Made by a program: the position numbers and the translations under genes. This document shows positions 16,219-25,015 of a DNA stretch of 64,000 nucleotides, one piece after another. Source of the DNA: Vicinamibacterales bacterium. GTDB lineage: Bacteria; Acidobacteriota; Vicinamibacteria; Vicinamibacterales; UBA823. The DNA lies in NCBI GenBank assembly GCA_965197385.1, contig CBDANA010000007.1, forward strand, positions 1,736 through 65,735. Direction: 5' to 3'. The stretch's first letter is position 1. Every line of letters starts with the position of its first letter. Under the pieces are notes generated by a model, which had not been told where the DNA came from, did not search any database, and saw only the letters and a program-made list of their open reading frames with translations.

Positions 16219-18527
16219 ATGCAGCATGCTTGCCGGTATCTTCAGTTCTTCACGATCGGTCTCATTCTGACGTCTGCAGCCTCGGCTTGTGCCCAGCCAT
16301 TTACGCCGGAACAGAACGCCGCACTTGATGCGGCGATCGCTGAACTCGACGCACAGATCGCCACTGCGGAACAGGAATCGGCGCTGTACGCGGGCGGTCT
16401 CGTGAAGACCCTCGTCGAACTACGGCTCGCCACCTTGCGGCAGACTGGGGCCATACTGAACCAACGAAAGCAGGCCGACACCTACGGAATCACGGTGACC
16501 TACACGGTCGATGGCTCCACATTCTCACCGGGCACGGGGGATCAGATCGCAGCCCTTGAGGCGGAGATTGCCGTGCTTGAGAAGAACATCATCGCCCAGC
16601 AGGCTGAAGCAGACCGATACGCAGGCGGTTTGGTCCAGGCGATGGCGCTGTCAACCGTGGCCACGAGCCGCCAGTCTCTTGTCATGCTGCAGCAGCAGCG
16701 GCTGGCCCTCACATACGGTCTCCCACAGTATGTGGGCGCGGCCAGTGCCGAAGCGTCGAGCGTCCCAGCGACCGCTCCGGCAGCCGCACCGGACGAGGCC
16801 TCCTCGGTGGAGATCGTTAGCATCGACGCCCGCGTCACTGAGTCCAACAGCACATGGTCGCGATTTGCTTGGATTCTCAAGATCCGGAATTCGTCGAATC
16901 AGCCACGACAGTTCAACGCCACGATCGAGTTCCAAGACGCCGATGGCTTCGTCATCGACACGGACGATGAGTACGGCCTGGTGGTAGCTGCCGAGGGGGA
17001 TGTCCCAGTAGCTGTTGAAATTTGAAGCGGCGGCTCTTCACTGGTCGTGCTATACAACCGGTGACGAAACCGAGGTGCAAGCCTCCCAGTAAGGAGCCGC
17101 CATGAAGAAGCAGTCTCGCACAGTCCCTCGCCGTCGCCAATCGGTATCCCCGACGCCACGGCACCTTCCGTTGGTCGATATCCTCATTGATACGCAGGCC
17201 GCGCTCCAGGAGCGGGTCGTCGCGTCTGGCCTGAAGGTACTCGAAGCCATGCTGGAAGAGGATCGGGCCGCCGTCTGTGGGCCACGGTATGCGCATCAAC
17301 CTGCGCGCCAGGCGTATCGAACGGGGCATACGCCGAGTCAGGTCGTGCTGGGCGGGCGGAAGGTGGCGATTCGTCGGCCCCGTGCGCGGCGCGCCGGCGA
17401 GGAGGTTCCGTTGCCAACGGCCCGGGCATTCGCGAATGCGGACCCGCTGAACCGGCGCGTGGTCGACCAGATGCTGATCGGTGTGGCGACCCGCCAGTAT
17501 GCGCGGAGTCTGGAACCGCTCGGCGCCGACGTCACCACGCGGGGCACGAGCAAGAGTGCGGTCAGTCGACGCTTTGTCGCGCAAACCCAGGCGCAGCTGG
17601 ATGCGTGGCGGGCGACGCCGCTCGACGCGCTGGACCTGGTGGGGCTGCTGATTGATGGCGTGCACGTGGGTGGACACTGTATCGTTGTCGCCCTAGGCAT
17701 CGATAAAATGGGCGCGAAACACCCGCTCGGCCTGTGGGAAGGGGCCACGGAGAACGCGACGGTCTGTCAGGGGCTCTTGACCAATCTCGGCAGCCGCGGG
17801 CTGCGCACCGACCGGAGCCTGCTGGTGATCGTCGATGGCGCGAAGGCCCTCGACACGGCCGTGACCCAGACATTTGGGCGCGCCGCGCTGGTGCAGCGGT
17901 GTCAGGTCCATAAGGGCCGGAACATCTTGGAGCATCTCCCTGAGGCACAGCGGCCGGGGGTGAAGGCGGTCCTCACGCGCGCCTACACGAACAGCCCCGT
18001 CAAGACGGCCAAGCGTCTGCTGCAGGACCTGGCGCGGCGCTTGGACACTGACTTACCCGAGTGCGGCCACGAGCGTGCGGGAAGGGCTCGACGAGACGCT
18101 GACCGTGCTCGGCTTGGGTCTGTCGGAGCGTCTCCAACGATCGCTCGCCACCACAAACGCCATCGAGAGTCTCCTCAGCCGAACGCGCCATGTGCAGCGC
18201 CATGTGAAACGCTGGCGCGGCGGGACGATGGTGCTGCGCTGGGTGGCCGCCGGGGTGCTCGAAGCGGCGAAGGGGGTTCCGTCGGGTGCAAGGATGTCAA
18301 GATATGCCCGCGCTGGTCGCTGCCCTCCTGGCACGCGACGCGCGGTTAGGACTCGGGGAGTCGTCAGAGATGGTTGCGTAGTCGTGAACCAAGCTGCCGC
18401 TGAGTTTCAACAGCGCACGGGACATCCCCCTGCCGAGTCAGAGGACACGTTCACAGGAGCGACCCTCATCGATGCCTCGGTTGCTGGGAATGTGGCCCGG
18501 TTTGTCGCCGAGGCCAGCCTTCGCTAA
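16219..18527 (+). pseudogene. Secreted hypothetical protein with duplicated YAGGLV coiled-coil repeat, interrupted by IS256
   Basis: Frame rejoins as GLVVAAE|SEDTFTG...SLR* after removing the IS. Confidence 0.8.
16996..18429 (+). mobile_element. IS256-family element, full length; transposase frameshifted
   Basis: IRs GGGGATGTCCC/GGGACATCCCC; 8-bp TSD CTGCCGAG; +1 bases near 18053 and 18272 relative to the other copy. Confidence 0.95.
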
Positions 18528-18927: not shown

Positions 18928-19032
18928 CCTCCCGGTTCTCTTCACCATCGCCCGCTTCGGTAGCAGCCACTATTCACAGCCGCGCTAACCTCCGTCCCCT
19001 TCACTTAATGGAGAAGACGATGAGCGTTCTAG

Positions 19033-20056
19033 CAGGCTGCTGAAAAAGTCCGTGCAGGTGCTGTACACGATCCGGAGCGAACGGCTGCTGCTGGAAGAGC
19101 TCAACGACAACCTGCTGTTCCGCTGGTTTGTCGGCTTGCATATGGACGACCCGGTCTGGCATCCCACGACGTTTACCAAGAATCGTGACCGGCTGCTGGC
19201 GGGGGATGGCGCGGCCGCCTTCGTTGATGCGGTCCAAGCCCACGCCCGGGCGGCCGGTCTGCTCTCGGACGAGCATTTCACGGTGGACGGGACGCAGTTG
19301 GAAGCCTGGGCCAGCCTGAAGAGCTTCCGATGCCGGGACGCCGCGCCGCGCGCGCCCCCCGATGACCCCGGGAATCCCACGGTCGACTTCCACGGCGAGC
19401 GGCGGCGCAACGACACGCACCAGTCGACGACTGATCCGGCGGCGATGCTGCATCGGAAGGGCCAAGGGAAGGAGGCGAAGCTGGCGTCTCTGGGCCACGT
19501 GCTGTTGGATAATCGGCAGGGGCTCGTCGCCAACGTCTGTGCGACCCACGCGACGGGGACCGCCGAACGCGAGGCGGCGGCACTGTTGCTGGAGGCCAGC
19601 GCGCCGCCGGGCAGCACGGTCGGAGCAGACAAGGGCTACGATGTGGCGAGCTTCGTCGCCGATGTCCGCGTCCGGGACGTCACGCCCCACGTGGCGCAGA
19701 AGGTCCGCTGGCGGGCGATTGATGGTCGGCCCACCCGGCATGCGGGTTCTCACGTGAGTCAGCGGAAACGAAAACTCGTGGAACAGGTCTTTGGGTGGAG
19801 GCAGACCGTCGGTGGTTTGCGCAAGCTCCGGCCTCGCGGCGTCCCACTCGTCGAGTGGCAGCTCACTTTCGCCGCCACGGCCTATAACTTGGTCCGCCTG
19901 CGGAATCTGGAGGCGACGTGTCCCTGCTCGCCGGCCGCGCGTGTCGCCGGCCCCCTCATCGGGGTCAGCGCACACCCGTGCGCACGGTCGTCGGGCGGTC
20001 GTCACCCGCATGATGCTTAAGAAAACAGCCCGATACCCGGGTTCTTCCGCAGCCTG
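19033..20056 (+). mobile_element. IS5-family element with 271-bp 5' internal deletion
   Basis: CTAG flanks; matches 25016-26310 minus 25038-25308. Confidence 0.93.
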
Positions 20057-20167
20057 CTAGAAGGAAATAACGACAGCCCGAGGTTCCGCCTGGGGTTATC
20101 GCGGCGGGCGCGCCAACTGTCAACATCGAAAGTGTCGCATCGAAAGTGTCGCTGCCACCGGCAGCGG

Positions 20168-20398
20168 TCAGACTGCTCAGGTGCCTCCGAACCCAATCGT
20201 GACGCGGTCGCCTTCGACGATCACCGGCACGTCGCGCTGCTCCTTGGAGTACGCCAGCATGCGCTCGAGCCCTTGCGGGTCGCGCTTGACATTGACGTAT
20301 TCGACCCTGACATTCCGTTTGGCGAAATCCTCACGGGCCGCCGTCGTGTAGGGTCAGGTGTCCTTGCCGAAGATGTACACCGTCGCTGGGTTCGTCAT
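20168..20398 (-). CDS. Glutaredoxin-like UXX-star-type selenoprotein (two putative Sec)
   Basis: MTNPATVYIFGKDT-UGA-PYT...VPVIVEGDRVTIGFGGT-UGA-AV-stop; hairpins after both UGAs. Confidence 0.85.
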
Positions 20399-20862
20399 CA
20401 GGAATCGTCCTCCACGGTCGTGGCTCGGCCGCCCGAGCTGTCCTCGAGCACGGCGCGCAAAGCCTCAGGAATCGGCACGGATCGTCCCGCCTCGAAGTCA
20501 TAGGTCACCTGCACGGACTTGGCCGTCGCGATGAGCCGCTGGCTAGCTGCGTCGACAACCTCGTACTCGTAGGTGAAGCTCGACCGCCCGATCGGTCCGA
20601 CGCGCATCTTGACGTCGAGCACGTCGCCGTACCGCGCCGGCGCGCGAAAGTCGCATTCAGCACGCGCCAGAATCGTTCCCGGCTGCCAGGGCACCTCGGC
20701 GTCCTTGTCCCAGCCGCGCTCGCGAAGTCGTGCCTGGAGGTGACGGAAGAACGCCCAGCGCGCTTCCTCGAAGTAGGTGAAGTAGACGGCGTTGTTCACG
20801 TGACCCAACTCGTCGCAGTCACGGAAGCGAACGTCGATCGAATGATGAAAGCCGAAGCTCAT
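20398..20862 (-). CDS. Acyl-CoA thioesterase (YbgC/FadM, 4HBT family)
   Basis: VRFRDCDELGHVNNAVYFTYFEEAR. Confidence 0.92.
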   Translation of the reverse strand: MSFGFHHSIDVRFRDCDELGHVNNAVYFTYFEEARWAFFRHLQARLRERGWDKDAEVPWQPGTILARAECDFRAPARYGDVLDVKMRVGPIGRSSFTYEYEVVDAASQRLIATAKSVQVTYDFEAGRSVPIPEALRAVLEDSSGGRATTVEDDS

Positions 20863-20920
20863 GGTCACTGTCTCAGAGAAAAAGTTGACGCGGCGTCGCG
20901 CCGCCCGATTATTATACGGC

Positions 20921-22597
20921 GTGTCCGACGGCCGCTCTGCCTCCGAGTCGTTCACGCCGGACGAGCGGCGGCGTCTGGCTGCCTACTTCACGAATCTCGA
21001 CGAACCGGTCTTCGCGATCACGAATCTGCCAGACGTGGTGAAGGGCGCGCTCTTTGCGCGCTATTCCCGGTCGGCGAAGTCGCTCCGACGCCTGTTTCTG
21101 GACGAATTCGCGACCGACGTGCCGGACGCCCAGACCAGCGCGGCGGCGGTCGGCGTCGAGCGGGCCGAGCGGCTCTACACGCGCGTGTTTCACGAATACG
21201 GCGACGATTCGGTGGCCCAGCTCGGCGGGGCGCACATCGCCTGCGAGGGCGTCTCCAACATCCTGACCAAAGTGCTGGAGCGCGGGCGGCTCGCGTCCTA
21301 TCTCGAACAGTCCACGCGCTACGTGCCATATACCGATCGGCCGCAGAACCGGTGGAAGTATCTGGTGCCGGACGAGCTGGACGGCACGCCGCTCCGGGAT
21401 AAATACGTTCGCACGCTGGATCGCGCCTTCGAAGTGTACGCGGGCTGGATCGAGCCGATGCAGGACTATCACCGCGCGCGCCACCCAAAGGATCCCACCG
21501 ATTCGGATGGCATCTACAAGGCGGCGATCCGGGCCAAGGCGCTCGACACGCTGCGCGGACTGCTGCCCGCCGCCACGCAGTCGAACGTGGGCATCTTCGG
21601 CTCGGGACAGGCCTACGAATCCCTCCTGCTGCAGATGCGCGCGCATCCGCTGGCCGAGATGCGGCGGTATGCCGACCTCATGCTGGCCGAACTGCGAAAG
21701 GTGATTCCCGCGTTCCTGACTCGCGTCGATCGATCCAACCGCGGCAACCGCTGGACCGAGTATCTCCGCGCCACACGGCAGGAGCTACGCCGCGTCTCGT
21801 CGGTGCAGCTCGACGGGCTCGTCGCCGAATCCCGTGACGAGGTCGTCCTGACCGACTTCGACCCCGAGGGCGAGACCAAGGTCGTTGCCGCTGCGCTCTA
21901 CGCCGTGTCTCATCTGCCCGACGACCAGCTGCTGAACGTCGCCAGGGGTATGTCGGCCGGCGCGCGCGCGGAAGTTCTTCGAGCGTACGTCGGCACGCGC
22001 GAGAACCGCCGCCATAAGCCGGGCCGCGCGTTCGAGCGCACCACCTACCGCTTCGACGTGCTGTCTGATTACGGCGCGTTTCGCGACTTGCAGCGGCATC
22101 GGCTGCTGACCATCGAGTGGCAAGACCTGTCGCCGGCCCACGGCTTCAACGAGCCGGACGCAATCGAGGAAGCCGGCGCCCTGACAGACTGGCGAGAGAT
22201 CATGGAGGCATCGGCCGACCTCTACGACGCCCTGTGGGACGCCGGCTTCGGTGCGGCGGCGCCGTACGCCGTCGCCATGGCGTATCGCGTGCGCTTCTAC
22301 ATGGACATGAACGCGCGGGAGGCGATGCACGTCATCGAGCTACGCTCCGCCCCACAAGGCCACCCGGCGTATCGCCGGGTCTGCCAGGCGATGCACGACC
22401 TCATCAAGGATCGTGCCGGGCACCGCGCGATCGCGGCTACCATGCGCTTCGCCGATCACTCGGAGGTGGATCTCGAGCGCCTCAAGTCCAAACGGGCCAG
22501 CGAGAAAAAACGGCAGCAAGGCAACGGAGATGGCATTGCTGCCGCCGGCTCGCAGCCCGGCGCCTCGGGTCCCGGTCGGGGGCCACGCATCACGTGA
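20921..22597 (+). CDS. thyX: FAD-dependent thymidylate synthase, tandem-domain form
   Basis: EYGDDSVAQL, SYLEQSTRY and FRDLQRHR motifs. Confidence 0.9.
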   Translation: MSDGRSASESFTPDERRRLAAYFTNLDEPVFAITNLPDVVKGALFARYSRSAKSLRRLFLDEFATDVPDAQTSAAAVGVERAERLYTRVFHEYGDDSVAQLGGAHIACEGVSNILTKVLERGRLASYLEQSTRYVPYTDRPQNRWKYLVPDELDGTPLRDKYVRTLDRAFEVYAGWIEPMQDYHRARHPKDPTDSDGIYKAAIRAKALDTLRGLLPAATQSNVGIFGSGQAYESLLLQMRAHPLAEMRRYADLMLAELRKVIPAFLTRVDRSNRGNRWTEYLRATRQELRRVSSVQLDGLVAESRDEVVLTDFDPEGETKVVAAALYAVSHLPDDQLLNVARGMSAGARAEVLRAYVGTRENRRHKPGRAFERTTYRFDVLSDYGAFRDLQRHRLLTIEWQDLSPAHGFNEPDAIEEAGALTDWREIMEASADLYDALWDAGFGAAAPYAVAMAYRVRFYMDMNAREAMHVIELRSAPQGHPAYRRVCQAMHDLIKDRAGHRAIAATMRFADHSEVDLERLKSKRASEKKRQQGNGDGIAAAGSQPGASGPGRGPRIT

Positions 22598-23775: not shown

Positions 23776-25012
23776 CGTAGCGTCACGTAAACAGCTTTAC
23801 AATGTACCACAGAAGGCGTATGGTGCGCAGCATGTGGAACCCTGCGGTAGTGGGTCAGTTTGGTAGCCTGGGTCGTTGGCCGCAACGACATCCTGCTGGC
23901 GCTGTTCGCGCTGACGACGGACGCGCACAAGCCCTACCTCTCGGCCGTCGAGGATGCGTTCGGGGCGGGTGCAACGCACGGGGCTCGAGGCACTGGTGCG
24001 CAGCGGCAAGACGCCGCAGCGCGTGTCGGCACGCGCGATGATTGTGCTCGCGGCGAGTGAGGGCAAACCCATTAATGCGATTGCGAAAGAGTTCGGGGTG
24101 AGCCGGCCGACGGTGTACCTGTGGCGGCGTCGCTTTCAGCAGGTCGGCGTGCTCGGCCTGATGAAGGATGCCCCACGGCCAGGTCGACGCCCCGCGCTGA
24201 CGGCCCAGGCCATCGCGGCCGTGGTCGACGCGACCTTGCAGACGACGCCGCCCGATGCGACGCACTGGAGCGTGCGGACGATGGCGAAGGCGCAAGGGCT
24301 CAGCCACGCGGTGGTCCATCGCATCTGGCGCGCGCATGGGTTGCAGCCGCATCGCGTCGAAACCTTCAAACTCAGCCGCGATCCCAACTTCGTGAAGAAG
24401 TTGCGGGATGTCGTGGGCGTCTACCTCCATCCGCCCGACAACGCCTTGGTCTTTTGTGTCGATGAGAAACCGCAGGTGCAGGCCCTGGATCGAACCGCGC
24501 CGGTGCTCCCGTTGCGAAGGGGCATTCCCGCGCGCCAGACGCACGACTATATCCGTCACGGCACGACAAACCTGTTTACGGCGCTGAACGTCTTGGATGG
24601 CACCGTCCTCGCGCGGTGTGCGCCGCGGAAACGGCACACGGAGTTCCTGGCCTTCTTGAATCAGCTGCATCGCGCAGTCCCCAAGCGGCGCGATATCCAT
24701 CTCATTCTCGACAACTACGGCACGCACACGCATCCGAAAGTCGAACAGTGGTTCGCTGATCACCCGCGCTACTACCGTCACTTCGTCCCCACAAGCGCCT
24801 CGTGGCTCAACTTGATCGAGCGCTGGTTCGCGGAGATCACTCGGAAACGGATTCGCCGCGGCACGTTCCGGAGCCTGCCGGATCTGATTCGTGCCATCGA
24901 AGAGTATGTGACGCACCACAACCGCTCGGCCGAGCCCTTCATTTGGACGGCGCCCGCGGCCACGATTCTCCGAAAGGTGCGCCATTGTAAAGAAGCGTTA
25001 GAGACAGCGCCC
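23775..25012 (+). mobile_element. IS630-family element; transposase 5' end disrupted
   Basis: TA flanks, imperfect IRs containing ctttacaatg; CVDEK, HDYIRHGT, LDNYGTH, SWLNLIERWF. Confidence 0.9.
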
Positions 25013-25015
25013 TAG

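Follow-up and report, generated by a model that had tools for sequence, protein, structure and literature searches.

A gene on the minus strand of a 64,000-nucleotide stretch of DNA from a Vicinamibacterales bacterium (the whole stretch is called the window below) very probably encodes a typical representative of UXX-star selenoprotein family 1. The product, 76 residues long, would have a truncated glutaredoxin fold, with UGA15 and UGA74 both decoded as selenocysteine (Sec). The selenoprotein family of this two-Sec gene has been catalogued before, so the gene is nothing new in kind, and its proper annotation name is that of the NCBIfam model NF041114. The frame runs from an ATG at 20398..20396 to a last sense codon GTC at 20173..20171 (minus-strand reading), and its product, read with TGA as U, is MTNPATVYIFGKDT-U-PYTTAAR...VTIGFGGT-U-AV. 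The features of the frame are as follows.

20398..20171, minus strand: predicted UXX-star family 1 selenoprotein CDS, 76 codons, glutaredoxin fold, translation with TGA=U
20356..20354, minus strand: UGA codon 15, predicted Sec, context GKDT-U-PYT, at the first-Cys position of CPYC
20179..20177, minus strand: UGA codon 74, predicted Sec, context FGGT-U-AV, third residue from the C-terminus
20170..20168, minus strand: third TGA (codon 77), the true stop, 9 nt past the second Sec codon
20413..20409, minus strand: GGAGG, possible ribosome-binding site read from the sequence, 10 nt 5' of the ATG and within the end of the thioesterase gene

A preliminary description of this DNA had claimed a minus-strand frame of 76 codons with UGA at codons 15 and 74, and we located both codons as claimed. 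The same description had the start codon overlapping the stop of the upstream thioesterase gene by four bases (ATGA); the actual overlap is a single base, in the form TGATG (stop 20400..20398, start 20398..20396). The gene is easily missed in annotation, since standard gene callers close the frame at codon 15, and the table 11 ORF listing, in which the frame is closed at that codon, has no entry for it. A whole-genome search identified this as the single locus of UXX-star family 1 in the genome.

Family membership and fold

Profile searches placed the product in UXX-star family 1. NF041114 ("UXX-star selenoprotein family 1"), an equivalog model with a curated cut-off of 72 bits, matched at 117.7 bits (E = 1.9e-34), with protein residues 7-76 lying on model positions 1-70 of 70; the model includes the residues past UGA74. 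This full-length match above the curated cut-off bears out the UXX-star type that had been suggested earlier. The parent subfamily model Uxx_star scored 94.3 bits against a cut-off of 66. We ruled out membership in UXX-star families 2 and 3 (51 bits each, cut-offs 100 and 97) and in the HUGP/GUXX-star fusion family (NF045501, 58.7 bits, cut-off 325), as these scores were well under the cut-offs; families 2, 3 and the parent Uxx_star are listed as NF041211, NF047338 and NF041212. What the protein has in common with families 2 and 3, the Uxx_star parent and HUGP/GUXX-star is the fold and the Sec-x-x-stop ending. With family 1 it shares the U-P-Y-T motif, the C-terminal U-x-x-stop, two Sec and the glutaredoxin fold, and nothing of substance differs; its local features are an Ala after Sec74, where Gly is usual, a TGA stop and a thioesterase gene directly upstream.

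The glutaredoxin fold was supported by sequence and structure comparisons. Pfam Glutaredoxin (PF00462) matched at 40.9 bits. An AlphaFold2 model (43 homologues) reached a pLDDT of 94.7 and a pTM of 0.85 with the order strand-helix-strand-helix-strand-strand, and its last residue block had a pLDDT of 98, so that the tail is confidently placed. The best solved-structure matches in Foldseek were glutaredoxins and NrdH (TM 0.75-0.78). In a profile search of PDB sequences, U15 fell on the first Cys and T18 on the second Cys of the CPYC motif of E. coli Grx3, confirming that UGA15 stands at the glutaredoxin redox position, as the preliminary description had it, and the VP of DVPVIV aligned with the cis-Pro motif of the same protein. 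Compared with E. coli Grx3 and NrdH-redoxin, the fold is the same and the first redox position, the cis-Pro (VP) and the GG turn align, whereas the second motif Cys is replaced by Thr and the C-terminal helix is absent, with a tail GGT-U-A-V in its place. A classical glutaredoxin or NrdH identity was rejected, given the scores for GRX_bact (36.7 vs 90), NrdH (23.6 vs 85.75) and YruB (41.7 vs 88.55) and the lack of a CxxC motif, with Thr18 in second place.

A full-text literature search for "UXX-star" returned a 2026 review (PMC13188914) as its sole match. The review lists a 'Distant Grx-like protein 1' with the motif UxxT and 2 Sec, suggests metals or unknown substrates as possible ligands of Sec in the UXX-star family, describes the functions as uncharacterised, and cites Haft and Tolstoy 2025 (mSystems) for other UXX-star families. 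Family 1 is traced to Zhang and Gladyshev 2008 (PMC2398784) on the strength of a table in PMC13188914; passages of the 2008 paper itself present a 'Grx-like' UxxC family and do not give the UxxT family by name.

The two UGA codons and the RNA behind them

A search of the genome for the Sec machinery, which the preliminary description had called for, found tRNA-Sec, selA, selB and selD. The tRNA-Sec scored 60.6 bits and was called by ARAGORN as tRNA-SeC with the anticodon TCA, and profile searches of the genome gave selA at 539.7 bits, selB at 324.1 bits and selD at 357 bits, all above the cut-offs. The selD gene (G000:C7:302030-302959, locus L022, outside the window) is itself a selenoprotein gene, with one in-frame TGA in the context CAG-U-ASKL. 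Two strong hairpins lie 3' of this UGA, with loops at +19 and +35, and the 8-bp stem with a small G-rich loop 19 nt past the UGA has the same geometry as the hairpin behind the UXX-star gene described below.

We then compared the frame with its homologues. Among 61 genomes of the same family or order (its own included), 33 carried a match over the NF041114 cut-off, 34 matches altogether, with one in-frame TGA in 5, two in 29 and zero in none. The family is also widespread in the phylum: 48 of the 301 genomes in an even sample exceeded the cut-off (45/298 without three genomes flagged as unpublished, G083, G106 and G202), with one TGA in 9 and two in 39, and the stop-free matches in this sample all fell under the cut-off and were without the tail. 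Named public genomes provided 16 loci in Vicinamibacteria, other Acidobacteriota, Deltaproteobacteria/Thermodesulfobacteriota and Nitrospirae-type MAGs, two of which were dropped, one being cut short or frameshifted (L069) and the other a non-member (L072). The loci parsed codon by codon numbered 64, with 30 from the same family or order, 14 from named public genomes and 20 from other classes of the phylum, the last set leaving out L077 and L082 from unpublished genomes.

Across these 64 loci, the first site was TGA in 46 and TGC/TGT in 18, and the second site was TGA in 63 and TCA (Ser) in one, never Cys, TAA or TAG. Downstream of the second site, two further codons mostly read Gly-Val with synonymous variation (GGC/GGG/GGA and GTC/GTG/GTT/GTA), and a stop always came next, as TGA, TAG and TAA in 15, 11 and 4 of the 30 loci of the order and in 15, 4 and 1 of the 20 loci of other classes. 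The near-invariant UGA at codon 74, together with a next stop that uses all three stop codons, is what a coding UGA ahead of a true stop would give, and is at odds with termination at codon 74. Of the Cys-containing homologues that the preliminary description had proposed to look for at both positions, those for the first site were found (18/64), but none had Cys at the second site and one had Ser. Its proposal of two Sec residues agrees with the pattern of Sec or Cys at site one, Sec in 63/64 at site two and a complete machinery, and both residues may be taken as predicted Sec on this comparative basis. The single exception at the second site, a Deltaproteobacteria MAG (L060:4019-4237), has TCA there, keeps Gly-Val-TGA and carries Cys at the first site; its TCA reflects either an assembly error or a point mutation that disables the tail.

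A decayed glutaredoxin pseudogene, with TGAs that are nonsense mutations or assembly errors, would account for a table 11 frame that closes at codon 15 and is missing from the ORF list, and insertion sequences do lie just downstream. However, loci in three phyla have TGA at the same two positions, with conserved protein sequence on either side, the Sec machinery is complete, and an independent DNA run (X3) has the same TGAs, making this explanation extremely improbable. In X3, all 30 bins of 20100..21000 were covered and the three TGA codons were the same; the run differs at nine listed places, none within a TGA codon, and one of these differences sits in the loop of the 3' hairpin (GGU to GGC, as in the sister genome). 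Contigs from RNA libraries overlap the locus, namely X17 (20100..20283, 2 other letters) and X16 (20410..20637), such contigs being no proof of transcription.

In bacterial SECIS elements, the apical loop carries G/U recognised by SelB and the spacing from the UGA is critical, as known from work on E. coli fdhF. Two regions of the locus are candidates for such elements.

20166..20150, minus strand: predicted SECIS for Sec74 in the 3' UTR, 7-bp stem CGCUGCC/GGCAGCG with a GGU loop
20352..20321, minus strand: region holding the predicted SECIS for Sec15, inside the CDS, with frozen synonymous sites and four candidate helices

The first of these, the cgctgcc/ggt/ggcagcg hairpin of the preliminary description, is present at 20166..20150. 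Its stem opens one base past the stop, and the distance from the U of UGA74 to the beginning of the loop is 20 nt. Hairpins were counted sequence by sequence, because those of unequal length end up misplaced when the 3' region is aligned with MAFFT. A perfect stem of at least 6 pairs was found in 27/30 loci of the order and of at least 7 pairs in 24/30, with the loop 19-27 nt from the UGA, compared with 18.6% and 7.8%, respectively, at random positions of the same loci (n=8467), a control unmatched to gene 3' ends, where hairpins are commoner. There were 27 distinct hairpins, with C-G, G-C, U-A and A-U at the same stem positions, and every loop contained GG or GU (30/30). RNAalifold on the imperfect MAFFT alignment recovered 6 pairs, 5 of them with compensatory changes. 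Taken together, the comparison shows the conserved hairpin past the stop to be a putative 3' UTR SECIS serving UGA74, in line with the earlier proposal of a second SECIS in the 3' UTR, the hairpin being kept as its stem sequence changes. An Rfam scan of 19800..20700 at E <= 10 gave no match, so that Rfam seems to lack a model suited to these elements.

We considered whether only UGA15 is Sec, with UGA74 as a real stop (73 residues) and the hairpin as a transcription terminator or stabiliser. The hairpin is at a terminator-like place, three close relatives (L034, L044 and L047) have a T-rich stretch behind theirs, and single-sequence folding of the gene's own hairpin gave a stability no greater than that of shuffles (z = -0.15). 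Against this, a terminator scan of the gene's own sequence found no T run behind the hairpin and made no terminator call, and all 30 loops keep their GG or GU. Moreover, the codon at the site is TGA in 63/64 and never TAA or TAG, although the stop three codons on uses TGA, TAG and TAA freely; the intervening pair of codons, though it varies synonymously, still encodes Gly/Ala-Val/Ile; and NF041114 includes the last residues, its match reaching position 70 of 70. We therefore regard termination at UGA74 as very unlikely and keep to the reading of UGA74 as a predicted Sec codon.

The 3' arm of the hairpin is abutted by a perfect 14-nt tandem duplication, CATCGAAAGTGTCG twice on the plus strand at 20124-20151, and the sister genome has this motif in single copy. 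The duplication may be the scar of a nearby insertion sequence.

Synonymous sites were examined after the first UGA. The Ala codon six positions 3' of the UGA was GCC in 26/27 distinct Sec forms, and the next Arg codon was CGT in 24/27, whereas the same codons in Cys forms (n=12) were GCG in 6, GCC in 4 and GCT in 2, and CGC in 6, CGT in 3, CGA in 2 and CTC in 1; since the loci are related, these counts overstate independence. This codon usage gives a clear sign of an RNA-level constraint after UGA15 in Sec forms only, and comparison between loci shows a predicted RNA element inside the coding sequence that would serve UGA15. Four candidate folds were compared.

20352..20345 with 20335..20329 (columns 8-15 with 25-31): candidate helix, 85.1% of cells paired, no more than 48% when slid, G-C in place of C-G in two cells
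columns 19-28 with 34-46: candidate two-part helix, 80.0% of cells paired, poor fit to the gene's own sequence
columns 18-21 with 36-39 plus a CC/GG clamp and a GUGA loop: candidate helix, 65.9% paired, own sequence fits fully
20344..20333: the acgg/cggc/ccgt hairpin of the preliminary description, 67.4% of cells paired, slid controls up to 52%, no compensatory changes

The last of these is present in the sequence as had been described, but it is not kept in relatives, and the other three fare somewhat better. Overall, the four folds paired 66-85% of cells, covariation was weak (1 to 2 compensatory cells where there were any), RNAalifold on 25 Sec-form sequences after UGA15 found no consensus structure, and the first-UGA region folded alone did no better than shuffles (z = 0.19). 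For both UGA regions, folding energy by itself is uninformative.

A possible redox role for the two Sec residues

The comparisons indicate that the genome's own SelA, SelB, SelD and tRNA-Sec would decode UGA15 and UGA74, with the element in the CDS serving UGA15 and the hairpin one base past the stop serving UGA74. UGA77 would terminate, because it lies 11 nt from the hairpin loop, too close for SelB, compared with 20 nt for UGA74. If this is true, two UGAs 9 nt apart are read differently, as Sec and as stop, purely by their spacing from one hairpin, and as the SECIS would lie wholly within the 3' UTR, the locus would be a natural test of bacterial recoding rules.

In the protein, Sec15 would sit at the N-terminus of helix 1, replacing the nucleophilic Cys of CPYC, with the second Cys replaced by Thr18. 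Sec74 would sit on a short tail past the conserved GG turn, which borders the active site in glutaredoxins. In some monothiol glutaredoxins, a Cys past the GG motif is the resolving residue. Because the resolving Cys is Thr here and the invariant GG turn is followed directly by T-U-A-V, Sec74 would be the natural resolving partner. The cycle would then run between a diselenol and an intramolecular diselenide and reduce a substrate, and the Cys15 forms (18 loci) would make a selenenylsulfide in place of the diselenide. Known glutaredoxin geometry is the ground for this Sec15-Sec74 cycle, which we put forward tentatively, as a reading with a fair amount in its favour that nonetheless falls short of even chances. 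A further step, to which we give somewhat less credence, is that Sec15 and Sec74 may form a natural intramolecular diselenide acting as a redox switch of very low potential, encoded by a locus that would be a test case for recoding, and that sulfur is no substitute at site 74. The C-terminal site is never Cys in 64 loci, and on such a reading this would mean that sulfur cannot replace selenium there.

The tail of mammalian thioredoxin reductase is a C-terminal Gly-Cys-Sec-Gly, and this enzyme has been expressed in E. coli with a bacterial SECIS behind the stop codon. The likeness is that a redox-active Sec stands near the C-terminus on a flexible tail and that an untranslated hairpin decodes it. 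Unlike the present protein, thioredoxin reductase has a different fold and is a large flavoenzyme; here, the arrangement would occur naturally in a bacterium, and the tail Sec would pair with another Sec within the same small domain. The C-terminal Sec in 63/64 loci that is never Cys, the conserved hairpin behind the stop, and a stop that is often UGA only three codons after a Sec UGA may each aid functional study of the family. These observations on the C-terminal Sec, the hairpin and the UGA stop leave the classification unchanged.

Gene neighbourhood

The gene directly upstream encodes a thioesterase.

20955..20398, minus strand: hot-dog fold acyl-CoA thioesterase (4HBT_2, YbgC/FadM type), start uncertain, GTG at 20955 or ATG at 20862

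It matched PF13279 at 99.7 bits and TIGR00051 at 66.4 bits, just under the cut-off of 68.7. The one-base overlap of its stop with the start of the selenoprotein gene implies co-expression of the two in this genome. Divergent to the thioesterase gene, a tandem ThyX protein of 578 residues with two Thy1 domains is encoded at 20861-22597 on the plus strand, and its ATG (20861..20863) overlaps the internal thioesterase ATG (20862..20860) as CATG.

We examined whether these neighbours accompany the family. A thioesterase homologue lay directly upstream on the same strand in 18/30 loci of the order, and tandem ThyX homologues were near the selenoprotein gene in 16/30. In contrast, none of the 20 loci from other classes of the phylum had a thioesterase or ThyX homologue beside the gene (tblastn, E <= 1e-3), and the neighbours there were mutually unrelated, including succinyl-CoA ligase, MFS and SDF transporters, CN hydrolase, a metallo-beta-lactamase fold protein, an amidohydrolase and others. 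Among the 14 named-genome loci, the thioesterase was matched, weakly, in one Vicinamibacterales locus only. The coupling to a thioesterase in the preliminary description thus holds for its own genome and 18/30 loci of the order but for 0/20 loci of other classes, indicating that the link is a matter of local synteny rather than a family-wide trait. A conserved partner gene that would hint at a substrate was not found in the neighbourhoods of the parsed loci.

The overlap of stop and start by one base and the frequent upstream thioesterase on the same strand (18/30) could also mean that the two genes form a dedicated system, for example with the selenoprotein as a thiol/selenol redox helper of acyl-CoA/CoA chemistry. 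We consider such a system unlikely: the pair is absent from the 20 other-class loci, where neighbours are unrelated to each other, it is matched weakly in one of the 14 named-genome loci, and in Desulfobacterota-type loci the gene is followed by ndk; the 18/30 may reflect inherited gene order, since the genomes behind these 30 loci are related. We retain the assignment as a very probable UXX-star family 1 selenoprotein whose link to the thioesterase is local.

Other recurring neighbours were ndk, downstream in Desulfobacterota-type loci (present in L060, L065 and L067), and carB, which precedes the gene in two acidobacterial loci (L062 and L066); ThyX recurs in Vicinamibacteria. A reading of the protein as a reductant for nucleotide metabolism was considered and not adopted; the ndk, carB and ThyX neighbours are absent from the 20 other-class loci.

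The surroundings of the locus are rich in insertion sequences. An IS5-type element occupies 19027-20062, bounded by 21-nt inverted repeats (19027..19047 and 20042..20062) and with a DUF772 + DDE_Tnp_1 transposase at 19052..20020; some 105 nt separate this element from the selenoprotein stop upstream of it. A Mutator-family (IS256-like) transposase is found at 16994-18431 between 27-nt inverted repeats (16994..17020 and 18405..18431), and an IS630-like DDE_3 transposase at 23954..25015.
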